Below, one piece after another: positions 8,349-45,250 of a DNA stretch of 45,516 bases. A program made the translations under genes and the position numbers. Source of the DNA: an uncultured Gammaproteobacteria bacterium (GTDB taxonomy: Bacteria > Patescibacteriota > Microgenomatia > Woykebacterales > RBG-16-39-9b); contig OZ246414.1 in assembly GCA_965231125.1 (NCBI GenBank), positions 709,924-755,439 on the forward strand, in the 5' to 3' direction. The notes beneath the pieces are model-generated. The model was not told the DNA's origin. It did not search any database and was given only the letters and a program-made list of their open reading frames with translations. Positions within the stretch are counted from its first letter, which is position 1. Each line of letters begins with the position of its first letter.

Positions 8349-8909
8349 TTACTTCGCTCTTTCTACGTATTGATTTGACCTAGTATCAATCTTAATTCGA
8401 TCACCATTTTTAATAAATAAAGGTACATTAATCGTGAGTCCATTTTCTAAAGTAGCTGGCTTATAAACGTTGGACACAGTATCACCTCGAACTCCGGGGC
8501 CTGTCTCGGCAACTGCGAGATCCATTAGTTTAGGCATCTCTACTCCCAAAACTACCTCTTCTGAAGTTAAAACATCGTACAAGCTAGATTCTTTCAGAAA
8601 TTTTTCTTTTCCACCCAAAATAGTCTCTTTCACTGGAAATTGTTCAAATGTTTTCGGGTCCATAAAAACTAAGTTTTCGGCATCTTTATACAAATATTGA
8701 AGCTTTTTCTTCTCGGTACTGGCCTCGTCAACTCTGGCCCCGGAAATAAAAGTTTTTTCAGAAAGTTGCCCTGTTTTTAAATTTCGGGCGCGGATTTTAA
8801 TATTGGCGCTTCCCCGCCCCATTTTAATATGTTGGTAGGAAACAACCTCAAAGATGTCTGCGTCTTGTTTAAAAGTTGTTCCGTTCCGCAGTTCTGTCAC
8901 GGGAATCAT
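8349..8909 (-). CDS. efp: translation elongation factor P
   Basis: The translation from MIPVTELRNGTTFKQ onward, including GRGSANIKIRARNLKTG, matches the EF-P N-terminal KOW-like region. ATG at 8909, since the longer ORF-track N-terminus overlaps the tRNA. Confidence 0.92.
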   Translation of the reverse strand: MIPVTELRNGTTFKQDADIFEVVSYQHIKMGRGSANIKIRARNLKTGQLSEKTFISGARVDEASTEKKKLQYLYKDAENLVFMDPKTFEQFPVKETILGGKEKFLKESSLYDVLTSEEVVLGVEMPKLMDLAVAETGPGVRGDTVSNVYKPATLENGLTINVPLFIKNGDRIKIDTRSNQYVERAK

Positions 8910-8925
8910 ATAAATTTGAAGGTAA

Positions 8926-9012
8926 TGGTGGGCAAGGTGGGAATCGAACCCACAAGGTGTTGCCACCATAGGTTTTTGAGACCTACGCGTATACCAGTTC
9001 CGCCACTTGCCC
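8926..9012 (-). tRNA. tRNA-Leu (anticodon CAA), type II with long variable arm, CCA encoded
   Basis: Manual fold: acceptor GGGCAAG/CTTGCCC, anticodon stem TAGGT/ACCTA with loop CUCAAAA, variable stem GGTG/CACC, T-arm GTGGG-TTCGATT-CCCAC, discriminator A plus CCA. Confidence 0.9.
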
Positions 9013-9190
9013 ATTATTAAACGCTGTCTACCTAGCTCACAAAGTGAGCGCAGGGCGCTTGCGTATCAAAATCCTTAATTTTGATACGGAGCGCTCTCTT
9101 CCACCACGCCGGCATAAATTATATATTTGACTAGGTGGGCACCAATTGCCCAGTAAGTTCAAAATTATACAATTTATGCTCCCCCTTTTC

Positions 9191-18364: not shown

Positions 18365-19060
18365 CTAACCTTCCGGCGGTCTATCCAAGGGAACCCCCTC
18401 CGGCACAAATACATTGGAATCCCGATACCGACCTGTCCACCAACGGTAAAGGAAAAATCCCAGCGCGATAACTATAATTATATAAATTAAAAGGATGACT
18501 ACTTTTCCAGCCGTAGCGGTTGTCACCAACGGTTTACTGGCGGATGAGCCGCCAATGTAAAGAAACGATTCCGCTACCTCGGACAAAATATCCTTGCCTG
18601 TACCGTGCGCAGCAATATTAGAATCTGTAGTTGTACCGCTGTTAAAATCAAAAGTGAGGGCTTCTTGTCCGGCAGAAAGAGCTTTAAACTTCACCGTGAC
18701 AAAACGGGCTTCTCCTGAAAAAAATGGTCCTTGTACCGGTGCCAGAGCAGTTACGGTAACTTTTCCATCCTCAATTTTTTTAACCGGGTAGTTTTGGTAA
18801 GACTCACCACCCTCAACCGACAAAGCCTGCAGTTTATCCGGATTAAAGGTTAGGACAACATCGGCTCCATCGGTATGAGTCTTACCAGTATCAATACTTA
18901 TATCCACGGAAAACTCTTGGCCGGAAGAAGTATTTACCACCTCTGGGCTAATTGAAAAACTTGCCGCAAAAGCCCCTCCAGCCAAAAATAACAATAAGGT
19001 AAGTCCGGCCAATGTACCTATTAACAAATGTCGAAAACGTAATCTTATGAAATTTGTCAT
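18365..19060 (-). CDS. cohesin-like domain surface protein with C-terminal membrane anchor
   Basis: Signal peptide, a cohesin-like beta-sandwich region (FSVDISIDTG...ADVVLTFNPDKLQALSVEGG) and a C-terminal TM helix VVILLIYIIIVIALGFFLY. ATG at 19060. Confidence 0.65.
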   Translation of the reverse strand: MTNFIRLRFRHLLIGTLAGLTLLLFLAGGAFAASFSISPEVVNTSSGQEFSVDISIDTGKTHTDGADVVLTFNPDKLQALSVEGGESYQNYPVKKIEDGKVTVTALAPVQGPFFSGEARFVTVKFKALSAGQEALTFDFNSGTTTDSNIAAHGTGKDILSEVAESFLYIGGSSASKPLVTTATAGKVVILLIYIIIVIALGFFLYRWWTGRYRDSNVFVPEGVPLDRPPEG

Positions 19061-19094
19061 ACTAACCACCAATCACTAAATAACTAATGACCGG

Positions 19095-20198
19095 TTAACT
19101 CCCCTTCCTTCCATAGTTTCTTACTAAGATAGAGTAATCTAAAGAATTAATACTAGTATCCAAATTCAAATCCGCCACTGTAGCGCCACCCGCTATATCG
19201 GAAAAAAACGAATTAACATCAACTGAATTTATCTTGTTATCGACGTTTAAATCGCCTAAATAAAGTCTTCCAACTTTAATTGTCGGTTTATAGTCAGCTG
19301 CCTTGAAATGGATTCTCTTCCGCAAAAGATTTTGTCCTTCTATTTCGAAAAGGTAGCGCTTGTTTTGTTTTAAAATCCCCTTTGCTACTTCAAGACGAAT
19401 TTCTTTAGTTGAAGAGGAGACACTGACTTCTTGACTGAACCGGGTGCTAGCGACCGAAATTTTTATTTGCAAAAGTCCTTGAAGTTCCGACAGCGGCTTC
19501 AACTTCACATCGATAAAAGTGATTGATTTATCGCCGGCCGGTGGAGGCTTCGGCGTAATCGGCACTGTTGACGGCGGGTATGAGATAATTGGTGGCGGTT
19601 TTGGCTTGGTAGTTGGTGGTGGAGGTTTAGAAGTAGGTAATTTAACAGTAATCGTTATACTTTTGCTCACCGGTCCACCCGGCCCTTTCGCAGTGATTTT
19701 ATAAGTCGTTGTAGAGCTTGGCTTAACCGCTATTTTTCCCGAGAGAGGAACTGGCCCCAAAGGATATATATTAACCGAACTTGCCCTCGTAGATGTCCAA
19801 CTTAGGGTGGAACTATCACCCTTAATTATGGTTGTTTTTGAGGCGGAAAAAGTTACTGTTGGCGGGCAAGTTTCCCCAATGTGACTAAGTTCAATGTCTT
19901 CGTCTTTCGAATTAACCCTACCGTCGTTATTAAGATCATATGTTGGATTATAATTGCCCGACCCCGCACCAGTACTATGATGAAGATGAATAAGATTAAC
20001 ATCTTTGTTATCTACTACTCCATCCCCGTTTAAATCATAACAAGTAGCCGCCTGTGACGCTATCGGTTTTTGGTTTAGTGAAGTAGCCACCGTAACTGGA
20101 ACCAGTGCCAAAATAAGCAGTGTGATAGCTAAAAGATATGCCTGCTTGGGTGAAATGAATTTTTCTGGGTTTAGGATCGGTTCGAAAAAACTAGCCAC
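19095..20198 (-). CDS. dockerin-repeat protein with Ig-like domain and proline-rich linker
   Basis: EF-hand-like dockerin repeats DLNGDGVVDNKD and DLNNDGRVNSKD lie near the N-terminus. DLNVDNKINSVD and DLNLDTSINSLD lie at the C-terminus. It has a PPPPTTKPKPPP linker and a GTG start. Confidence 0.72.
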   Translation of the reverse strand: MASFFEPILNPEKFISPKQAYLLAITLLILALVPVTVATSLNQKPIASQAATCYDLNGDGVVDNKDVNLIHLHHSTGAGSGNYNPTYDLNNDGRVNSKDEDIELSHIGETCPPTVTFSASKTTIIKGDSSTLSWTSTRASSVNIYPLGPVPLSGKIAVKPSSTTTYKITAKGPGGPVSKSITITVKLPTSKPPPPTTKPKPPPIISYPPSTVPITPKPPPAGDKSITFIDVKLKPLSELQGLLQIKISVASTRFSQEVSVSSSTKEIRLEVAKGILKQNKRYLFEIEGQNLLRKRIHFKAADYKPTIKVGRLYLGDLNVDNKINSVDVNSFFSDIAGGATVADLNLDTSINSLDYSILVRNYGRKGS

Positions 20199-21965: not shown

Positions 21966-23312
21966 CTAGCTATTTGACTCAATTACCTTTTTCTTCAATT
22001 CCTTTTGAAAGTTGTAGACTCTCGCCCAAGTTAACAAATTACTTTCGCCAAAGATTTTGGCAGATGCGACGGCGGTGGCCTCCGGCTCAATTACAGTTAA
22101 AGCACCGGAGCCAGACGGCAACCGCAGAGAGGAATAAATATCGGCCCCGCCAAATTTTTCTGAATACGGCGGGCAATTTATCACTGTGTTTGGCGTGGCA
22201 AAATCCAAATATGCACCAAGAGCGTTAGACCTTCCCGCAACCGCAACATAAACGATTTTGGGATTCATAGAATCCAGTTTTCGCACCCAACTACTTACAT
22301 ACTCCGGCGTTTTATGAGCCGATGCCACAACCACCAGAGTTTTAATGCCAGAAAATTTCGCAAGGTGTTTTTTTATTTCATCAATCCAAGGCATGTCGCT
22401 CGCCGAGCCGGCAATAATCGCGCAAACGCCAGCCTCTTCCTTAACAAAATCGCTAGTTAACTCCGCGACGGATCGGTATTTCGCCGCAACCTGCTCAAGA
22501 CCCTCTTTTGTCGCCGAAATTAAATTTCGATAAATTTGTTTATCCAGCATTGCCTCTTTTTGCCCGCCCGGCCAAAGCCTCCAACTGTCATTATCAATTA
22601 CGTCAGCGACAATAATATTCCCCTTTGTATCAAAACCGAATTCTATTTTTAAATCAACTAGTTGGATGTCGTGGCTTCCCCAGGCCCGTTCCAAAACAAT
22701 AAAAACTTCCTTGAGTGTTTCGTACATTTCTCCCACCATCCAGTCTGTGACTATTTTTCCGGCTCGGGATTTTATTTGCTTAACGGTTTCCATAAACCCA
22801 GCCCGCCTCATAAGCTTTGCATCATAAAAGAGCCACTGCCTGGTTTGCGGATCGTACTCCACCATCGGATCGTGTTTTGAGTCGTCTTTATAAAAAATTT
22901 CCGTGACAAGAGTGTCAAACCGATGGCCTTCGGCAACCTGCGGGTTGCGCTTTAAATAACTTCCAGTGGCAATTCTTCTCGCCACCACTTCCAGCGGGAT
23001 CATATCTACCTTTTTAACAATTTGCTCGTTACTAGTGAGGCTTGCCCCACGAAACTTTAGTGAAGTGGGGTCGACAAAATGGGTTGGGATACCAGCGGCA
23101 GTGAGAAGTTTAAAACAGTTTGCGGAAGTAGTGGCCGCCCAAGCCCCTTTACCCGGTAAAACATCATGTTTCGCTCCATCACCAGCCGTAATATCGTCTT
23201 TAAGGACTACTCGCGCGAGCGACTTGTCACGCGGAAATGGATAAATAATTTTTGTCTTGCCCTCAGCAAGTTTTCTCCCGCGGGTTTTAGTTTGGACTTT
23301 AGATCTTGCCAT
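21966..23312 (-). CDS. purC-purE: bifunctional SAICAR synthetase / PurE-type (N5-)CAIR mutase fusion
   Basis: The N-terminal ~300 aa are SAICAR-synthase-like (LEVVARRIATGS, DFKIEFG-type LVDLKIEFGF). The C-terminal ~150 aa are PurE-like (IIAGSASDMP, ASAHKTP, VAGRSNALG). ATG at 23312. Confidence 0.85.
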   Translation of the reverse strand: MARSKVQTKTRGRKLAEGKTKIIYPFPRDKSLARVVLKDDITAGDGAKHDVLPGKGAWAATTSANCFKLLTAAGIPTHFVDPTSLKFRGASLTSNEQIVKKVDMIPLEVVARRIATGSYLKRNPQVAEGHRFDTLVTEIFYKDDSKHDPMVEYDPQTRQWLFYDAKLMRRAGFMETVKQIKSRAGKIVTDWMVGEMYETLKEVFIVLERAWGSHDIQLVDLKIEFGFDTKGNIIVADVIDNDSWRLWPGGQKEAMLDKQIYRNLISATKEGLEQVAAKYRSVAELTSDFVKEEAGVCAIIAGSASDMPWIDEIKKHLAKFSGIKTLVVVASAHKTPEYVSSWVRKLDSMNPKIVYVAVAGRSNALGAYLDFATPNTVINCPPYSEKFGGADIYSSLRLPSGSGALTVIEPEATAVASAKIFGESNLLTWARVYNFQKELKKKVIESNS

Positions 23313-23352
23313 GTTTACCAACAAAAACTGCCCTTTCGGGCAGATTTACTTC

Positions 23353-23381
23353 ATATTAACTAGAAGCAAAGAGAAAGTAAA
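23353..23381 (-). promoter_or_regulatory. promoter TTTACT-17-TAATAT of purC-purE
   Basis: -10 at 23353-23358 and -35 at 23376-23381, minus strand. A hairpin plus T-run (23328-23343) lies between it and the ATG. Confidence 0.5.
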
Positions 23382-23452
23382 GTCTTTGATCCACTTTGTA
23401 ATGAAAAGTCTATATTGTTTTTAGTAGGAGTGTCTGTTAGCTTATATTTCCT

Positions 23453-23617
23453 ATGCCAGTTTTGTATTCGTGCGATATTTGCGGAAAACATATTGAACGT
23501 CTTGACTCAATACAAATTTTTGGAAGTGACAAGATCGGTATTATTTGTGAAAACTGTTGGAGACCAATTGAAAAACAATTAACCGAAAAGGAGGTCGCTG
23601 ATGTTAACGAAAGATGA
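23453..23617 (+). CDS. possible 54-aa zinc-ribbon-like peptide
   Basis: MPVLYSCDICGKHIERLD...ICENCWRPIE contains a CxxC...CxxC pair. It is below the ORF-track cutoff and overlaps the next ORF by 17 nt. Confidence 0.35.
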   Translation: MPVLYSCDICGKHIERLDSIQIFGSDKIGIICENCWRPIEKQLTEKEVADVNER

Positions 23618-23810
23618 TCTAAAAGATATCCAGAAATTGTTAAAACAGGAGTTACACCCTTTAGAAGAAAGGCTAGATGTCAACACCGCTAGCGTCATGA
23701 AAATTGAAGCAGATATTGGTATGGCACTTGAGCTACGTGAAGATGTTTCTCAGGTTAGAAAACAAGTTTCAAACCACGAAGAAAGAATTTCCCACTTAGA
23801 AAAGTTTTAA
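23601..23810 (+). CDS. small coiled-coil protein, unknown function
   Basis: 69-aa ORF with ATG preceded by AAAAGGAGG. The sequence is heptad-like and charged. Confidence 0.5.
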   Translation: MLTKDDLKDIQKLLKQELHPLEERLDVNTASVMKIEADIGMALELREDVSQVRKQVSNHEERISHLEKF

Positions 23811-23913
23811 TGAAGCAAAAAGAAACCGGCTAGTAGTTAGTGCTCGAAAGCAATAACAACCAGCCGGTGAAAGTTCCAGGTCGAGGTGTAGTGGGTCCAC
23901 CCCAACCATTCAG

Positions 23914-24615
23914 TTAGGCGGTTTTTAGCTGGTAGGGAAGGTAGTCCTCGATTCGATCGCGGACATAGTAACCAAACCTACCTGCCAAGTTGTGTGTCTT
24001 CCAGAACCGCCCCTTCGCCTGCTTGGAAAAGTAAGAGTAGGTGTCAAGGTCGACATCCTTCCCTTCTCTCCAATCTCGGCGGGCCTGCTCTTCATCGTCA
24101 AAACAGCTTTTGGCGTAAGCGGCGAGGCTTCGTAGGACGTAGTCCACCTCGTGTCGGTTGGCGTTCTCCTCTGTGTCAGGTGAGAACCCGAAGGTCTCTT
24201 TGAACAGACGTCGCTCGCGCCAAGACACGGCGCCGGAGGGAAAAGCTGCAACTTCTAGAGGCAGCCAAATACCAACTCCGACAAACCTGTAGGCCGTTTC
24301 AGCCGCCGTTCCCCCGAAGAAGAACCAGACCACACCAACAATAGCTGTCACAACTCCAACGTAGGAGCCGGCAGCGATGCCAATGGTGATCCACGGCAGT
24401 GAGAAAATGAATTCCACTGATATTCTCCTTCCCCTTCGGTACTTCCGAAGGATAGTCGGTGCTTCCGACAGACACGATACTTCCAGTGCTTCTGGAAGCT
24501 GCGGGTGCTTCCCGCGGATCCCAACAGGCCCCACTAACCTGTAGAGAACAAAATTACCAAGCTGTGCTTGGGAAAGGTTGATGGCCTCCAAATTGGTCAA
24601 AAAACCACTTCGCAA
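23914..24615 (-). CDS. orphan membrane protein, unknown function
   Basis: 233-aa ORF with two or three hydrophobic helices in the middle and a consensus promoter just upstream. The exact start is uncertain: a TTG at 24615 abutting GGTGGA. Confidence 0.5.
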   Translation of the reverse strand: MRSGFLTNLEAINLSQAQLGNFVLYRLVGPVGIRGKHPQLPEALEVSCLSEAPTILRKYRRGRRISVEFIFSLPWITIGIAAGSYVGVVTAIVGVVWFFFGGTAAETAYRFVGVGIWLPLEVAAFPSGAVSWRERRLFKETFGFSPDTEENANRHEVDYVLRSLAAYAKSCFDDEEQARRDWREGKDVDLDTYSYFSKQAKGRFWKTHNLAGRFGYYVRDRIEDYLPYQLKTA

Positions 24616-24633
24616 TCCACCAAAACTATAGTA

Positions 24634-24662
24634 ATTATAGCATACTATGGGACAAAAGTCAA
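24634..24662 (-). promoter_or_regulatory. consensus promoter TTGACT-17-TATAAT for the 23914-24615 gene
   Basis: -10 at 24634-24639 and -35 at 24657-24662, minus strand. Confidence 0.65.
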
Positions 24663-24664
24663 GC

Positions 24665-24694
24665 TTGTCTCCTTTTTTCCTAGATCAGTTAAAT
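24665..24694 (+). promoter_or_regulatory. candidate promoter TTGTCT-18-TTAAAT for the structured element
   Basis: It sits back to back with the minus-strand promoter around an AAGCTT core. The predicted start coincides with the first base conserved between the two element copies. Confidence 0.4.
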
Positions 24695-24699
24695 TTCTA

Positions 24700-24903
24700 A
24701 ACCGCTCTGCAAGAGCACTTTTTTCCGGCCTGGATTAGTCAGCGTTAAGCCCTGAACCAGATGCGCGTGGGCGAAGTAAAATTCCACCTGTTTGACGAGA
24801 GTTTTTAACTCAAGGAGTTTGGAATTTTAACGAAGCAATTGGTTCAGGGTAGCTGGAGGATCCCGGCCGGTCGTTTGGCGTTACCTTTTCGGTAAAAGGT
24901 AAC
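24700..24903 (+). ncRNA. candidate structured RNA / repeat element, copy 1
   Basis: About 205 nt, repeated at 32439-32625. CCGGCC...GGCCGG closing helix, 9-bp CCCTGAACC/GGTTCAGGG helix and a 10-bp terminal hairpin with a compensatory change between copies. Confidence 0.45.
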
Positions 24904-24907
24904 AAAA

Positions 24908-26227
24908 TTACTTAAATCTTCTAAAAATCCTATCTATATATTTCAAATTATTTCTGGGATCAAAAACTTCCAAAAGCTCTTTTTCGGAAACTAAACTCAT
25001 CACTTTTTTATCTTTTAATAATAAACTTTTTAGATCCTCATCTCTGGACTCCATTGCGGCGAAAGCATATTTTTTCACTAGCTCATATGCTTCTCCCGCT
25101 TTCATCCCTTTAGATTTAAGCAAAGTTTGGGCTCCTTGGGAAAAAATTGCTCCCCGCGTTTTTTCCAAATTTTCTTTCATTTTTTCTGGAAAAACTCTCA
25201 TTCCCTCGACAACTGCCGTCATTTGCAAAATCATGTAACCTGTTAAGTTCGTAGCGTCGCCAATCGTCAAACGCTCGGACGCAGAGTTAGTTAAGTCCCG
25301 CTCGTGCCAAGTGGCAATATTTTCGTACATTGGGGCAATTTTGCTCCGCAGTACGCGCGCAAGCCCGACAATTCTTTCGGATTTATGCGGGTTGCGTTTG
25401 TGCGGCATGGCACTACTTCCAGTTTGGCTGGATTTAAACCCTTCTTGAACTTCGGCAATTTCCGTGCGAGCTAAATTGCGAATTTCCGTGGCGATTCTTT
25501 CTAAAACCGAGCCGATAACTACTAACCGGTGGACATAATCCGCGTAAATATCGCGGGGTAAAATTTGGGTGGATATTTTTGCTCTCGTGAGACCCAATTT
25601 TTTGCAGACTAGCTCCTCCACTTTTGGGTCTAGTGTGTAGACTCCGACCGCGCCAGAGATTTTCCCAACGGCCACTTCATCGCGCAGACTTTTTAGTTCA
25701 TCAACCAATCTTTCGAGTTGATCTAACCAATTAAGAAGCTTAAAACCAAACGTGATTGGTTCCGCATGGACTCCGTGAGTCCTTCCAATCTCTAGTGTAT
25801 TTTTATACTCAAAAGCTTTATTATTAACTGTTTTTACAAGTTTTTCTAATTCGTCTCTCAATATGTCAACCGACTCTTTTAGCATCAATGCTGCCCCCGT
25901 GTCTTCGACATCATATGATGTTAATTTGTAGTGGAGAAAATTGCCCGCTTCCTCCTTTCCCATCTTTTTAAGTTCCCCTCGCACAATATTTAGGAACGCG
26001 GTTAAATCGTGATCGGTCTTCTCTTCTTCTTTTTTTACTTTTTCTGGGGATATTGATTTAATTTTACCAATCGCAACCGCTGCAGACTTTGGGATAATTT
26101 TAAGTTCAGCTTGAGCAGAAGCGACGGCTTTTTCTACTTCAAGCCAGTATAAAAAACGGTTGTCACCTTCACCAACCATCCAAATATTCCAAAGGGCGGG
26201 ATGTCTATAGCGTTCGATTGCTGGCAT
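24908..26227 (-). CDS. purB: adenylosuccinate lyase
   Basis: Fumarate-lyase signature SSAMPHKRNP. Length is 439 aa. Confidence 0.95.
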   Translation of the reverse strand: MPAIERYRHPALWNIWMVGEGDNRFLYWLEVEKAVASAQAELKIIPKSAAVAIGKIKSISPEKVKKEEEKTDHDLTAFLNIVRGELKKMGKEEAGNFLHYKLTSYDVEDTGAALMLKESVDILRDELEKLVKTVNNKAFEYKNTLEIGRTHGVHAEPITFGFKLLNWLDQLERLVDELKSLRDEVAVGKISGAVGVYTLDPKVEELVCKKLGLTRAKISTQILPRDIYADYVHRLVVIGSVLERIATEIRNLARTEIAEVQEGFKSSQTGSSAMPHKRNPHKSERIVGLARVLRSKIAPMYENIATWHERDLTNSASERLTIGDATNLTGYMILQMTAVVEGMRVFPEKMKENLEKTRGAIFSQGAQTLLKSKGMKAGEAYELVKKYAFAAMESRDEDLKSLLLKDKKVMSLVSEKELLEVFDPRNNLKYIDRIFRRFK

Positions 26228-30858: not shown

Positions 30859-30906
30859 TAAATAAGTGGGCTAAAAATTTTTGCCTTTTTACTTTTGGCT
30901 TTTTAC

Positions 30907-31482
30907 TTAGAAAGGGATGTCGTCTATGTCTATTTCCTCATCTTCTTTGGCCTTACCGTCTTCGCTTTTTTCTTCTTTTTTCTCCTCGACTTTATCTTTT
31001 TCTTTGTCAACCGCTTTAGCCGATTCTTTCTTTTCCTTTTTTTCTTCTTTGGGTTCTTCTGATCCCTCCTCTTTTACAACTTCCTTCGGCTCTACTACCG
31101 CCGCGGGGGGTCTTTCCTCACCGCCTTCTCTTGTCTCCGGTCTCTTTTGATCGAGAATAACCATATCTTCGGCCACTATTTCCGTAGCTTGTCTTTTCTC
31201 GCCGTCTTGAGCTTCCCAACTGCGGGTTTGGAGCCGCCCTTCGATGTAAACCTTTCGCCCTTTGGTAAGAAGCTGAGCGCAAAGTTCTGCTAGTTTATTC
31301 CAAGCAACGATACGGTGAAACTCAGTTTCTTCTTTTCGTTCGCTGGCATCGGCTGGCATCCAACTTCGGTTGGTTGCGAGACCAAACGAACAAACGGCTG
31401 TTCCCTGCGGTGTGTAACGCAGTTCCGGATCCCTAGTTAAATTCCCTATCAACATCACTTTATTTAAACTTCTACTTGACAT
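30907..31482 (-). CDS. ssb: single-stranded DNA-binding protein
   Basis: OB-fold N-terminus LNKVMLIGNLTRDPELRYTP, a long Lys/Glu-rich linker and an acidic tip DIDDIPF. ATG at 31482 with GGAGG 5 nt upstream. Confidence 0.9.
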   Translation of the reverse strand: MSSRSLNKVMLIGNLTRDPELRYTPQGTAVCSFGLATNRSWMPADASERKEETEFHRIVAWNKLAELCAQLLTKGRKVYIEGRLQTRSWEAQDGEKRQATEIVAEDMVILDQKRPETREGGEERPPAAVVEPKEVVKEEGSEEPKEEKKEKKESAKAVDKEKDKVEEKKEEKSEDGKAKEDEEIDIDDIPF

Positions 31483-31776: not shown

Positions 31777-31947
31777 GATTTAGTATATCCTCAAAATTAA
31801 ACTCGGGAGCAGTATAACACAAGGCTGCAAGCAAGTTCAATATCTAACATAACGTATCAAAAATTTGCAATAAAAGACTATAATATTGTTAACGTAGCAA
31901 GAAAAGTTGCTCCTGCAACCCTGCTACTAAAATAAGGAGGTCTGGAG

Positions 31948-32373
31948 ATGAGTCCATACGCCGTGAGAGTCCTGGAGAGGGCGATTCCTACTCTCCCACC
32001 TAAACTCAGTAAAGGGTGGGAGGACGACAAGGGTGATAAATGCGGTGCCGAACATGTGCACAGCGTCATCGTGGAAATGGGGCTCTGCATTTGTGCCTCA
32101 GACGACAGTGAAGAAAAAATCAAATGTATTGCTTCTCTCTGTGGCGTCGGTTGTGGAGATGTGCTTAGACTTATGTTGGTGAACGATCATTCGACTGACG
32201 CCGAGCGTAGAGGTTGTGTCGAAAACGAGCTAAACCTGTGGTTAAGCAGAGCAAGAGCTGCCGAACTCCAGCAACTTTCTCTGTTCGAGACCGTTCGGGC
32301 AAACATTGAAGCCGCTGCCACCGTCGACGAGTCCGAAGAATCTGTTGAAGAAAGGATTCCCGTTCTCGTCTGA
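31948..32373 (+). CDS. orphan Cys-rich acidic protein, unknown function
   Basis: 141-aa ORF with ATG preceded by AAGGAGG and a clean terminator downstream. It is GC-richer than the flanking sequence. Confidence 0.55.
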   Translation: MSPYAVRVLERAIPTLPPKLSKGWEDDKGDKCGAEHVHSVIVEMGLCICASDDSEEKIKCIASLCGVGCGDVLRLMLVNDHSTDAERRGCVENELNLWLSRARAAELQQLSLFETVRANIEAAATVDESEESVEERIPVLV

Positions 32374-32392
32374 GATCAGATCCACAGATCCG

Positions 32393-32430
32393 CTGGGTCG
32401 AGACACTTCCCTCTCGACCCAGTTTTATTT
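32393..32430 (+). terminator. rho-independent terminator of the 31948-32373 gene
   Basis: CTGGGTCGAG/CTCGACCCAG 10-bp stem followed by TTTTATTT. Confidence 0.8.
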
Positions 32431-32438
32431 CTAGTTAT

Positions 32439-32625
32439 AACCGCAACTACGAGCAAGTGTTTTCTTTCCGGCCTGGATTAGTCAGCGCTAAGCCCAGAAT
32501 CCAGATGCGCGTGGGCGAAGCAAAATTCCACTTGTTTGACGAGAGTTTTAACTTGAGGAGTTTGGTTCAGGGTAGCTGGAGGATCCGGCCGGCAATTTGG
32601 TGTCACCTTTTTTGCAAAAGGTGAC
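32439..32625 (+). ncRNA. candidate structured RNA / repeat element, copy 2
   Basis: Same order and orientation as copy 1. CCGGCC at 32468-32473, GGCCGG at 32587-32592, and terminal hairpin GTCACCTTTT-TTGC-AAAAGGTGAC at 32602-32625. Confidence 0.45.
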
Positions 32626-32633
32626 AGAAAAAA

Positions 32634-33746
32634 TCAAACATTGAACTTGAATATCGTCACATCTCCATCTTGGAATACGTAATCTTTTCCCTCAAGTCGC
32701 ACTGAGCCTTTTTCTCTCGCCTGCTGCCAACCACCGGCAGAAATTAATTTCTCCCAATTGATTACTTCTGCCTTTATAAAACCTTTTTCAAAATCAGTGT
32801 GAATTGTGCCAGCGGCTTGCGGCGCTTTGGTTCCGGCCTGAACGGTCCAAGCCCGCACTTCTTTCTCACCCGCAGTAAAATAAGTTATTAAGCCAAGCAA
32901 TTTATAACTTTCCCGAATTAATCTCTCCAACCCAGATTGCTCAAGACCCAACTGCTTAAGATACTCCTTCTGTTCTTCCTCGCCCAACTCCACTAGTTCC
33001 GCCTCAATTTTCGCGGAGATAATAACACTTGGAGCAAACTCCCCAAAAATATCTTTAAACTCTACAGTACCTTTAAGGCCTCGCTCGGACACATTAAAAA
33101 CATAAATCACGGGTTTTGCTGTTATTAACGGCAAAGTTCCCAATAATTCCTTTTCCTCAGTCGTTAAATCCACATTTCTCCCCAAAACTCCTTTTTCCAA
33201 ACCTTTTTTAATTATTTCTAAAGATTCTAACCTTCCCTTTGTCTCTTTTGTCCCCTTTGTATCCTTTGTCTCGTTCTCAATTAGTTTTTGAATCGTCTCC
33301 AAATCCGCCAGAATTAGTTCAGTATTAATCGTTTCAATGTCACTTTTGGGATTTTCCCCGGAACGGACAACATCGTCTTCTTCAAAAGCTCGCACCACGT
33401 GGAGGGTTGCATCCACTTCGCGTATGTGCGCGAGAAATTTATTACCCAACCCTTCACCTTGGGCCGCCCCTTTCACCAAACCGGCAATATCGACAAATTG
33501 AACAATCGCCGGCACAATTTTTTGGGTGTTAACTACTTTTGCAAGTTTTTCCAATCGAGAATCCGGCACTTCAACAACACCGACGTTTGGATCTATGGTA
33601 GTAAACGGATAATTCGCAACTTTCGCGCCACTTGCCTGTCCCTCCGAAGCTTTAGCGAAGGGGGACTTTTTTAACAAAGCATTAAAAAGTGTGGACTTAC
33701 CAACATTGGGCAAACCAACTATCCCGACTTTCAACATATCTGGCAT
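32634..33746 (-). CDS. ychF: ribosome-binding ATPase YchF
   Basis: Walker [24 protein letters not shown], and the C-terminal YchF/TGS-like domain. Confidence 0.95.
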
Positions 33747-41133: not shown

Positions 41134-41234
41134 CTACCTTAATTTTGACTTTTAACTTTTGCCTTTTGAATTTCTTTTGTGTTACCTTAACCCCATCCAA
41201 TTAACTGAGTAACTAATAACTTTACTAACTAAAC

Positions 41235-43901: not shown

Positions 43902-43953
43902 CTGGCAAACTCGCCTGCGCCAAAACTTGGGTAAAGAAACTCTTTGAGAAATC

Positions 43954-43973
43954 TTCCTTCGCTTGAAAGCAAA
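43954..43973 (+). repeat. 20-nt motif TTCCTTCGCTTGAAAGCAAA, copy A
   Basis: The identical 15-nt core TCGCTTGAAAGCAAA recurs at 44512-44531 and 45226-45245 in the same orientation. Confidence 0.85.
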
Positions 43974-43995
43974 TCTCGGATTTACGTTTTAGGGG

Positions 43996-44506: not shown

Positions 44507-44511
44507 ATCTT

Positions 44512-44531
44512 TTCCCTCGCTTGAAAGCAAA
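44512..44531 (+). repeat. 20-nt motif TTCCCTCGCTTGAAAGCAAA, copy B
   Basis: Same 15-nt core as copies A and C, 10 nt upstream of the -35 of the RHH-PIN promoter. Confidence 0.85.
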
Positions 44532-44541
44532 TTTATTTTCA

Positions 44542-45221: not shown

Positions 45222-45225
45222 CTTT

Positions 45226-45245
45226 TTCCTTCGCTTGAAAGCAAA
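45226..45245 (+). repeat. 20-nt motif TTCCTTCGCTTGAAAGCAAA, copy C
   Basis: Identical to copy A. It lies between the convergent PIN and SET genes. Confidence 0.85.
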
Positions 45246-45250
45246 ATTTG

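Follow-up and report, generated by a model that had tools for sequence, protein, structure and literature searches.

In the usual MITE, the terminal inverted repeats (TIRs), of some 4-30 bp at the very ends, are needed for transposition and are the best-kept part of the element, and REP and SMAG repeats are accompanied by a RAYT gene and headed by a conserved tetranucleotide. Prokaryotic MITEs are shorter than 500 bp, give stable stem-loop transcripts, may be present in only 1-22 copies per genome, and have direct repeats that fade with age (PMC10969869). Canonical examples such as Correia/NEMIS, QMITE1/2 of Coxiella and MITEAba12 (for which the range of 1-22 copies is described) are non-autonomous and intergenic, and sRNAs can arise from them (PMC10969869). 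We analyzed an element that occurs twice in the window, meaning the whole 45,516-nucleotide stretch of DNA under study, from an uncultured, Woykebacteria-like bacterium of the Candidate Phyla Radiation (CPR) with a genome of about 0.9 Mb. The element is like canonical MITEs in its size (222 and 213 bp, below 500 bp), in being non-coding and in having empty sites in relatives at both of its positions; unlike them, it has a conserved core that is GC-richer, no TIRs or direct repeats, and no cognate IS in the sampled DNA. Its CCGGCC...GGCCGG arms are internal, 39 nt from the left end and 37 nt from the right, the outermost bases are alike only in being T-rich, and no common word of at least 4 nt spans the boundaries of either copy. 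Because it has neither a target-site duplication nor terminal inverted repeats, we do not place the element among the canonical MITEs, although the missing duplication is not decisive since direct repeats wane with age (PMC10969869).

ERIC sequences are non-coding imperfect palindromes of 100-200 bp that lie in transcribed intergenic regions, often 3′ of genes; either strand can fold into one long, irregular hairpin, and related genomes differ in whether they have them (PMC3184786, PMC10969869). The window element shares their size class, rod fold, position behind a stop codon and empty sites in relatives, but ERIC is flanked by TA and has both TIRs and target duplications (PMC3184786), whereas here there is no target-site duplication or terminal inverted repeat; ERIC also occurs in tens to hundreds of copies (PMC10969869) as against the two seen here, and in another phylum, and the likeness is one of general features. 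SPRITE, SMAG and REP-type repeats are small repeats behind genes whose hairpins may terminate or stabilize the upstream transcript (PMC10969869, PMC3184786), and the window element resembles them in a hairpin 4-8 nt past the stop codon that has been kept by a compensatory change. Its hairpin and rod, however, have no U-tract and are not terminator-like by the usual definition, and a REP or SMAG unit consists of one hairpin and is much shorter. REP/REPIN repeats are GC-rich palindromes of 20-40 nt, single or in inverted doublets, that are mobilized by a RAYT (Y1 transposase); here, a global alignment of the two arms of the core with each other gives about 50% identity, an inverted-doublet reading of the core is possible, and no Y1 transposase was found in the 60 kb sampled. 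More generally, many bacterial repeats are located behind genes, with which they are transcribed and whose mRNA stability they change (PMC3184786).

With modest confidence, we read the element as a lineage-specific insertion repeat of the MITE-, ERIC- or SPRITE-like kind that is palindromic, non-coding and low in copy number, and not as an independent RNA gene.

The two copies and their divergence

The element occupies positions 24686-24907 (copy 1, 222 nt) and 32421-32633 (copy 2, 213 nt), in the same orientation. A search of the whole window with nhmmer and a profile of the two copies returned 24686-24910 (E = 1.2e-79) and 32420-32632 (E = 7.3e-75) and no third copy, so that the two-copy repeat of the original prediction stands far beyond chance in both this search and the alignments, with limits slightly wider than claimed. 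The unit of about 215 bp consists of a loosely conserved flank of about 40 nt, an imperfect palindrome of 125-146 nt, a 9-nt linker and a 10-bp hairpin, and we assign no strand to the copies or their parts. In copy 1, the left flank, the palindromic core (24725-24870; 146 nt, closed by CCGGCC/GGCCGG and able to form a rod on either strand), the linker and the terminal hairpin are followed by an A-run that abuts the purB stop triplet at 24908-24910. Copy 2 lies between the ancestral terminator hairpin of ychF and the ychF stop triplet at 32634-32636, and its core (32468-32592; 125 nt) has the outer stems of copy 1 and is missing a 20-nt segment. The GC content of the copy 1 core is 0.51, compared to 0.436 for the window. 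One arm of the element reads CCGGCCTGGATTAGTCAGCG, with its partner arm opposite. The left arm also contains GCGYTAAG, which resembles the inner end of Tn3-family inverted repeats; because a GGGG outer end is missing at a distance of 38 nt and the other arm has no matching motif, a Tn3-type inverted repeat was rejected and the resemblance is regarded as a coincidence.

The near-identity that had been claimed for the copies applies to the core only. Core against core, there are 6 substitutions and 4 indel events over 124 aligned positions (95% identical), whereas the right flank carries 10 substitutions in 37 positions (73% identical; core versus right flank, p = 0.0004) and the left flanks (24700-24724 and 32439-32467) can be aligned only with several indels. 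A dead repeat does not explain this unevenness, which indicates that the core has been subject to selection or gene conversion. The 20-nt indel is present as predicted: the segment found only in copy 1 reads TTGGAATTTTAACGAAGCAA, is followed by TTGG, and can be placed from 24819-24838 through 24823-24842, since the junction shows TTGG/TTGG microhomology of the kind left by a slippage deletion in copy 2. In copy 1, this segment pairs with the upstream AAAATTCC and lengthens the rod, and its absence from copy 2 costs 16 of the copy 1 base pairs. A T-to-A SNP is seen in the JGI strain at 32474, an unpaired base between CCGGCC and GGATT in copy 2.

The open reading frames inside the copies are only 26-56 aa long, and none is common to both because four indels break the frames, which agrees with the claim that the element is non-coding. 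A small protein gene was ruled out on the same ground, every frame being broken by indels. In Rfam 15, the element matched no family, 6S, HEARO and ribozymes included, and in the window only tRNA-Leu passed the gathering threshold; at E ≤ 10 the copies matched, below threshold, only eukaryotic snoRNA and lncRNA models, a CRISPR repeat and the two bacterial sRNA models ARRPOF and BSnc115, all of them noise, so that the proposed absence of a known family survived the cmscan check even at this threshold. No homologue was found with three exact core blocks in the GTDB genomes, where the matches of block B were chance ones, or in IMG/VR, nor with one exact core block in the JGI metagenomes, a collection that does not include the source sample and is mute on copy number in the source; none of the chance matches extended beyond 18-23 nt. 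Six-frame translations of both copies, which were compared with 5.8e9 proteins with spurious ORF calls in mind, gave no match at E ≤ 10.

Closer to the source, the element was absent from both sites and from elsewhere in the loci of six Woykebacteria relatives by nhmmer, blastn and a covariance model (R1), and conservation of the element was thus not supported. A covariance model of the core and hairpin, run over 145 kb of the organism and its relatives, recovered just the two copies, and about 15 kb added by way of the window-end proteins contained no further copy. In about 60 kb of the genome there are thus two copies, 7.7 kb apart. The search of these 60 kb also gave no transposase, integrase, RAYT or Y1 transposase, in agreement with the earlier statement that no transposase is nearby.

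Insertion sites behind purB and ychF

Both copies lie behind minus-strand housekeeping genes, beginning 4-8 nt 3′ of the native stop codon and with the hairpin end nearest to it, a position that the original prediction had missed. Copy 1 comes right after the native stop of purB (24908-26227, minus strand; adenylosuccinate lyase, Pfam Lyase_1 and ADSL_C), whose C-terminus, RFK*, is similar to the FSK* of a relative. Copy 2 comes right after the native stop of ychF (32634-33746, minus strand; ribosome-binding ATPase, Pfam MMR_HSR1 and YchF-GTPase_C), whose C-terminus, ...FKFNV*, is identical in the related locus L084. In L084, the 3′ end of ychF reads TGA-GGACCGAG-GGGTCGAGG..CCTCGACCCAGCGATCT, with a hairpin 8 nt past the stop. 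The minus-strand counterpart of this hairpin in the window is ..CTGGGTCGAGAGGGAAGTGTCTCGACCCAGCGGATCT, and copy 2 separates the homologous hairpin, at 32392-32423, from the ychF stop; being homologous to the post-stop hairpin of L084, the hairpin at 32392-32423 therefore marks the 3′ end of ychF before the insertion.

The spacing of the genes in Woykebacteria relatives indicates presence/absence polymorphism, both sites being empty there. The gap between ychF and rpsF is 78 nt in L114 and 113 nt in L116, and the gap between purB and purCE (or purE) is 3 nt in L003, 70 nt in L084, 34 nt in L116 and 227 nt in L115; in the window, the purB-purCE gap of 1,583 nt contains copy 1 and orphan genes. 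These comparisons show both copies to be insertions relative to the related genomes.

The orphan gene beside copy 1 (23914-24615, minus strand) belongs to no Pfam, PHROG or NCBIfam family and matched only itself among 5.8e9 proteins; with neither a family nor a homologue, nothing about it suggests that it belongs to a mobile unit. Its strong promoter at 24634-24662 (minus strand) lies outside the repeat, and the TTGACT-17-TATAAT assigned to it earlier matches the consensus at 11 of 12 positions. A riboswitch or leader of the orphan gene was rejected, as this promoter stands between the element and the gene and copy 2 has no downstream minus-strand gene. The 7.7 kb between the copies hold rpsF-ssb-rpsR, an S41 peptidase gene and purB, with the gene order of relatives, and on account of these syntenic housekeeping genes att-like repeats bounding an island were rejected. 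An integron attC site is defined by an R″ RYYYAAC and an R′ GTTRRRY at the ends of an imperfect palindrome after a cassette ORF. This identity was also rejected, because on both strands neither motif occurs at either boundary (for example, AGGTAAC, GTTACCT, GTTTAGA and GTTATAA all fail) and what lies upstream are not cassettes but core housekeeping genes whose synteny is conserved.

Fold, strand and transcription

The minimum-energy fold of copy 1 is the predicted rod on both strands and contains all four of the helices proposed, namely CCGGCC/GGCCGG, GGATT/GATCC, CAGC/GCTG and the 9-bp CCCTGAACC/GGTTCAGGG, with z-scores against shuffled sequences of -4.7 (plus strand) and -5.65 (minus strand). 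In copy 2, however, an A-A mismatch and a T bulge break the 9-bp helix (CCCAGAATCC), and the fold does not stand out from those of shuffles (z of -1.55 and -1.82). Of the 72 pairs of copy 1, 42 are unchanged in copy 2, 6 are broken and 17 are lost to gaps, and in this comparison of two sequences the consensus core pairs are all invariant, with no covarying pair. For the rod, then, these losses and the lack of core covariation give no support to selection on pairing. Copy 2 is shown to be a decayed version, which has lost 20 nt through the microhomology deletion and whose main helix carries a single mismatch and a single bulge.

Selection on pairing had been claimed for the terminal hairpin, at 24880-24903 in copy 1 (GTTACCTTTT-CGGT-AAAAGGTAAC; 4 nt from the purB stop) and 32602-32625 in copy 2 (GTCACCTTTT-TTGC-AAAAGGTGAC; 8 nt from the ychF stop). 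The alignment of the copies confirmed its 10-bp stem and the T-A to C-G compensatory change, which is the sole compensatory pair between the copies and is strand-neutral. The stem has been kept while the loop and linker drift: 2 of its 20 positions differ (the one compensatory pair), compared to 8 of 17 in the non-stem flank (Fisher p = 0.023). Two signals point to constraint on the element, the identity of the core (95%) relative to the right flank (73%) and the preservation of the hairpin stem. After the hairpin, the plus strand reads AAAATTAC in copy 1 and AGAAAAAA in copy 2, both A-rich, and the minus strand GCCAAACG or ACCAAATT. The hairpin was not among the terminator-like sites of the terminator scan, and, with no U-tract on either strand of either copy, its identity as an intrinsic terminator was not supported.

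The original prediction also placed a promoter, TTGTCT-18-TTAAAT, in front of copy 1. The hexamers are where they had been proposed, but they fail the consensus scan, which requires an A as the second base of the -10; moreover, this putative promoter lies mostly outside the repeat, with its -35 outside, and has no counterpart at copy 2, and the scan found no plus-strand promoter at either copy. Copy 2 is instead preceded by the hairpin at 32392-32423, which the terminator scan assigned to the plus strand (12 bp, GCTGGGTCGAGA...TCTCGACCCAGT then TTTATTTCTA) and which, with its T-tract, terminates a 141-aa plus-strand ORF and runs directly into copy 2. With a promoter that is sub-consensus and absent at copy 2, and a terminator abutting copy 2, the claim of a free-standing plus-strand transcript could not be upheld. 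The same is true of the preference for the plus strand. Three transitions are retained as G-U only on this strand, but they convert a 5-bp helix into tandem wobbles, the p-value of three of three is only ~0.125, and the z-scores do not favor the strand. There are 6 G-U pairs in the plus-strand fold versus 2 in the minus-strand fold.

Origin and possible roles of the element

The new structured RNA originally predicted thus retains its non-coding nature, its lack of an Rfam family, the rod of copy 1 and the compensation in the hairpin, but not its promoter or its strand, and neither selection on the rod nor conservation in relatives is supported. A free-standing structured sRNA gene of about 200 nt, in two paralogous copies with their own plus-strand promoter and ending at the terminal hairpin, is now decidedly unlikely. 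Copy 1 does fold far better than shuffles, there is no Rfam family or conserved ORF, one hairpin pair is compensatory, the three transitions and the 6 versus 2 G-U pairs lean to the plus strand, and a core at 95% against a right flank at 73% is as expected of a constrained RNA core; repeat-derived sRNAs also exist, such as the Coxiella Cbsr RNAs from QMITEs (PMC10969869). Against this, the copy 1 hexamers fail the scan, copy 2 has no upstream promoter and is run into by a plus-strand terminator, the plus strand downstream of the hairpin is A-rich and not U-rich, the z-score of copy 2 is -1.55 with 6 pairs broken, 17 lost and no core covariation, the z-scores do not favor the plus strand, and the element is absent from every relative examined. 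The element also resembles 6S RNA and other rod-shaped sRNAs, in its length of about 180-200 nt, its irregular rod and its GC-rich closing stem, and some genomes have two paralogous 6S RNA genes. 6S RNA is, however, broadly conserved, and it was rejected here for lack of an Rfam 6S match at E ≤ 10, of a large central bubble and of a promoter at copy 2, and because the element is absent in relatives. Taken more widely, a functional RNA module under selection in this CPR lineage, in which the core and the compensated hairpin form a new class of structured RNA, seems to us unlikely, whether as a plus-strand sRNA pair or as a portable 3′-UTR cassette recruited by a streamlined genome for the control of purB and ychF transcripts.

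It is unlikely, in our view, that the element is a host-beneficial module of the 3′ end, acting on the minus-strand mRNA as a terminator without a U-tract or as an mRNA stabilizer for purB and ychF; it would then be a mobile, terminator-like element with a role like that of the pneumococcal SPRITE or the Stenotrophomonas SMAG. The position of both copies 4-8 nt past the stops in the same orientation to the upstream gene, the compensatory change that keeps the stop-proximal hairpin while loop and linker drift, and the greater constraint on the core than on the flanks would all fit such a module, and downstream SMAG and ERIC repeats affect transcript stability (PMC3184786), while SPRITE has terminator-like sequences (PMC10969869). 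However, the same orientation in two of two copies is a 50% coincidence, post-stop positions are probably the safest places for an insertion in a compact genome, the rod of copy 2 is decaying, and the relatives do without the element. Nor are the hairpin and the rod canonical intrinsic terminators, because no U-tract follows either on the minus strand, and the older 3′ hairpin of ychF is still present, so that a new one was not needed. A one-off, non-mobile local duplication across 7.7 kb, by ectopic recombination or template switching and with cores homogenized by gene conversion, would account for exactly two close copies in direct orientation in about 60 kb, for the lack of a target-site duplication, terminal inverted repeat or transposase, for the absence of related sequences from every collection searched, and for a core at 95% and flanks at 73%, as expected of a conversion tract limited to the core. 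We nevertheless regard it as very unlikely, since both junctions are precise post-stop insertions with no duplication of flanking sequence, which is unusual for a segmental duplication, and a clean patch of 215 bp at the second site would have no clear mechanism. The insertion repeat that we favor draws on the empty sites of relatives, the displacement of the ancestral ychF hairpin by copy 2, the location of both copies behind native stops, the lack of homologues, the decay of copy 2, the constraint on the core and hairpin stem, and the terminator, in place of a plus-strand promoter, that abuts it. It has to contend with the missing MITE hallmarks (no target-site duplication of at least 4 nt and no convincing terminal inverted repeats), with a conserved interior and variable ends, the reverse of the usual MITE, with a mobilizing enzyme not found in the sampled DNA, with two copies 7.7 kb apart that fit local duplication as well as transposition, with an uneven divergence that a dead repeat does not explain, and with a core GC-richer than the genome where MITEs are typically AT-rich (PMC10969869).

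Under the insertion-repeat reading, the element has entered two sites in one orientation, each time in the short stretch that separates a housekeeping stop codon from the sequence that follows. Its copying would have been the work of an enzyme acting in trans, or else of recombination or template switching. Because both copies stand 4-8 nt after minus-strand stops, with no terminator between the stop codons and the element, it would almost certainly be transcribed on the minus strand as the 3′ UTR of purB and ychF. In this transcript, the stop-proximal hairpin and the rod may form a 3′ stem-loop block, which could shield the mRNA from 3′-5′ exonucleases, stall or terminate transcription, or provide an RNase III site; such a role would explain the retention of the hairpin through a compensatory change that is equally valid on either strand.

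If the insertion-repeat reading holds, the element would be a sequence-novel case of a familiar phenomenon, that of small palindromic repeats in 3′ UTRs. CPR bacteria are generally poor in mobile DNA, and a full-text search found no literature on such repeats in them. Its use would be modest, as a marker of recent genome change and as a warning to screens for new RNAs, since a conserved structured RNA is mimicked by a long palindrome in two copies. Should the conservation of the core and stem instead reflect a function at the RNA level, the finding would have greater weight, since a phylum without cultured members would then have a new regulatory RNA specific to this lineage.

Structure and divergence of the two copies

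The two-copy profile matched the window only at 24686-24910 (E 1.2e-79) and 32420-32632 (E 7.3e-75), and together with the pairwise alignments this bears out the repeat described in the original prediction. Its copies, at 24686-24907 (222 nt) and 32421-32633 (213 nt), form one unit of four parts: a left flank of ~40 nt that is poorly conserved in the pairwise alignments, a core running from CCGGCC to GGCCGG (24725-24870, 146 nt, in copy 1; 32468-32592, 125 nt, in copy 2), a 9-nt linker, and a terminal 10-bp hairpin (24880-24903 and 32602-32625) followed by a short A-run. The element has no coding capacity, and a search of its six-frame translation against the protein collection was negative.

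Divergence between the copies is uneven, the core (6 substitutions in 124 aligned positions, with four indel events) being kept better than the right flank (10/37; Fisher p=0.0004). The 20-nt indel is real; given the TTGG/TTGG microhomology, 24819-24838 and the 24823-24842 first proposed are equally valid placements, and the junction matches the scar that a slippage deletion in copy 2 would produce.

A Logan contig of SRR6155509 matches the locus at 100% identity, and JGI contig Ga0136847_10125626 does so at 99.93%; the S41 peptidase of the window is recorded on a 915-kb contig. The JGI assembly carries 15-16 SNPs in 21 kb (window 14908-38464), so at least two strains exist. A single one of them affects the element, a T-to-A change at 32474, where the base separating the CCGGCC stem from the GGATT stem is unpaired.

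Insertion sites at purB and ychF

The host belongs to the Patescibacteria/CPR and is Woykebacteria-like, with purB identities of 75-78% to Woykebacteria MAGs. Both copies lie directly 3′ of minus-strand housekeeping genes: the terminal hairpin ends 4 nt from the purB stop codon (24908-24910) in copy 1 and 8 nt from that of ychF (32634-36) in copy 2. Woykebacteria relatives are syntenic at both junctions, yet both sites are empty of the element. The gap from purB to purCE is 3 nt in L003, 70 nt in L084 and 227 nt, with no rod-like fold, in L115, and that from purB to purE is 34 nt in L116; ychF and rpsF are 78 nt apart in L114 and 113 nt apart in L116.

L084 offers the most telling comparison. 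There, 8 nt separate the ychF TGA from a hairpin, GGGTCGAGG..CCTCGACCCAGCGATCT, whose homologue in the window (minus strand CTGGGTCGAGAGGGAAGTGTCTCGACCCAGCGGATCT, 32392-32423) is now separated by copy 2 from the unchanged C-terminus and stop codon of ychF. Relative to L084, copy 2 is therefore an insertion of about 212 nt in place of about 8 nt. Copy 1 lies within a 1.58-kb insert that also holds the orphan gene 23914-24615 (-), whose sole match among 5.8e9 proteins was itself.

The homologs sought for the element were not found, either by nhmmer and blastn of the relatives' loci or by database block scans. Three core blocks had no homologue in GTDB representative genomes, one core block had none in JGI metagenomes (the source metagenome not among them), and every match of three core blocks in IMG/VR was a chance word without extension. 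A covariance model over 145 kb detected no further copy, and a further ~15 kb of flanking sequence from this organism held no third one. No transposase, integrase or Y1 transposase was present in the ~60 kb sampled.

Both junctions are variable. The ychF-rpsF junction (window 31777-32633; L084 6109-6694) is a hot spot for novelty, with an orphan 141-aa ORF convergent with ychF in the window and a different ORF in L084, which is GC-rich, encodes about 110 aa and runs on the opposite strand; in each case the ORF lies behind the one hairpin conserved at the ychF 3′ end. At purB-purCE (window 23325-24907; L002 5321-5997) the window holds a true orphan of 233 aa, whose promoter is close to consensus, and a 69-aa coiled-coil-like ORF (23601-23810, +), and L002 has an unrelated 146-aa ORF in the same place. 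The adjoining purC and purE are fused (21966-23324) into a 452-aa protein with an N-terminal SAICAR synthetase and a C-terminal AIR carboxylase, as in several Woykebacteria; in L116 (12746-14271) they are separate, purE preceding purC.

Toxin-antitoxin pairs, identified by Pfam labels, are dense for a small genome (33780-34258, 35168-35853 and 44199-45221): HicB/HicA beside ychF, a PIN protein with an upstream partner, DUF4258/DUF2283, and RHH/PIN_3. A 25-nt motif, TTTTCCYTCGCTTGAAAGCAAATYT, which contains a small GCTT-GA-AAGC palindrome and occurs three times between toxin-antitoxin genes (43952-43976, 44510-44534 and 45224-45248), could serve them as a common operator or terminator. Two minus-strand genes, rpsR and one for a MarR-type regulator, each have just upstream a doubled ~20-nt T-rich motif, AATTTTTGCCTTTTTACTTT (30876-30909 and 41140-41173), perhaps a promoter or leader element common to both. 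Dockerin-like and cohesin-domain proteins lie side by side (18365-20198; L084 16356-19210), in synteny among the Woykebacteria relatives, a hint that this CPR lineage may build a cellulosome-like surface assembly.

Folding and transcription

An Rfam search of the window gave only a tRNA-Leu above the gathering thresholds, elsewhere, in agreement with the proposal that the element is no known RNA; at E<=10 both copies gave noise matches only. The tRNA-Leu(CAA) (8926-9012, -) has a long variable arm, and a mechanical 221-aa ORF overlapping it (8349-9014) is probably spurious.

The proposed fold holds for copy 1, whose minimum-energy structure has every helix named and is far more stable than shuffled sequences (z -4.70 on the + strand, -5.65 on the - strand), but not for copy 2 (z -1.55 and -1.82). 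The helix described as a perfect 9-bp pairing reads CCCAGAATCC versus GGTTCAGGG in copy 2, with one A-A mismatch and one bulged T, and the 20 nt absent from this copy remove 16 pairs. When the 72 pairs of the copy 1 + strand fold were scored in copy 2, 42 were unchanged, 4 were kept through a one-sided change, 3 scored as double changes, 6 were broken and 17 were lost to gaps. Among those double changes, the hairpin pair alone lies within reliably aligned sequence. RNAalifold recovered an outer scaffold common to both copies on both strands; its core pairs are all invariant, with a covariation term of -0.5 (+) or -2 (-) kcal/mol.

The compensatory T-A to C-G change proposed for the terminal hairpin is genuine, although, being symmetric, it is uninformative as to strand. 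Changes affect 2/20 stem positions versus 8/17 in loop, linker and tail (p=0.023), so this hairpin seems to have been kept. The supposed + strand preference was not supported: three transitions give G-U pairs only on this strand, yet a 5-bp helix gains tandem wobbles, three of three amounts to p ~0.125, and by z-score the + strand has no advantage.

The letters of the proposed + strand promoter are present, but it fails a standard consensus scan, and the repeat does not include its -35; the scan shows nothing promoter-like at copy 2. Upstream of copy 2, the 12-bp terminator and T-tract of the 141-aa ORF lead into the first bases of the element, and neither the terminal hairpin nor the rod is followed by a U-tract on either strand. 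Because the element follows the purB and ychF stop codons with nothing intervening, it would by default be expected to be transcribed with these genes on the minus strand, as their 3′ UTR.

A palindromic insertion repeat or an RNA gene

The observation behind the proposed new structured RNA gene is confirmed, while its reading as an RNA gene is only partly supported. A small insertion repeat, palindromic and of the general MITE/ERIC/SPRITE type, fits better than a dedicated RNA gene, because the element has inserted precisely at two unrelated post-stop sites, is absent from all relatives and all databases searched, is a long imperfect palindrome without coding capacity, has one intact and one decaying copy, and has no promoter or terminator of its own. 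A + strand sRNA gene, for which the stable copy 1 fold would speak, is quite improbable, and a one-off local duplication with gene conversion, which would account for a well-kept core but not readily for precise insertion right after two stop codons, is slightly less probable.

Small palindromic elements are <500 bp, yield stable stem-loop transcripts, sometimes occur in very few copies and lose their direct repeats with age (PMC10969869); they often lie at 3′ gene ends, are transcribed with the gene and change the stability of its mRNA (PMC3184786). We do not class the element as a canonical MITE, since two defining features, terminal inverted repeats and target-site duplications, were not found and it keeps its interior while its ends drift, the reverse of the usual MITE pattern.

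A purely dead repeat does not explain the excess conservation of core and hairpin stem, which could come from selection on a 3′-UTR stem-loop function, from a site acting at the DNA level, or from gene conversion across the 7.7 kb between the copies. A selected 3′-end module would suit the kept hairpin beside two stop codons, but sits poorly with the decay of copy 2, and we regard it as unlikely. We lean towards a palindromic insertion repeat, low in copy number and specific to this lineage, that is transcribed together with purB and ychF as part of their 3′ UTRs. Its sequence family is new; the kind of element is known.
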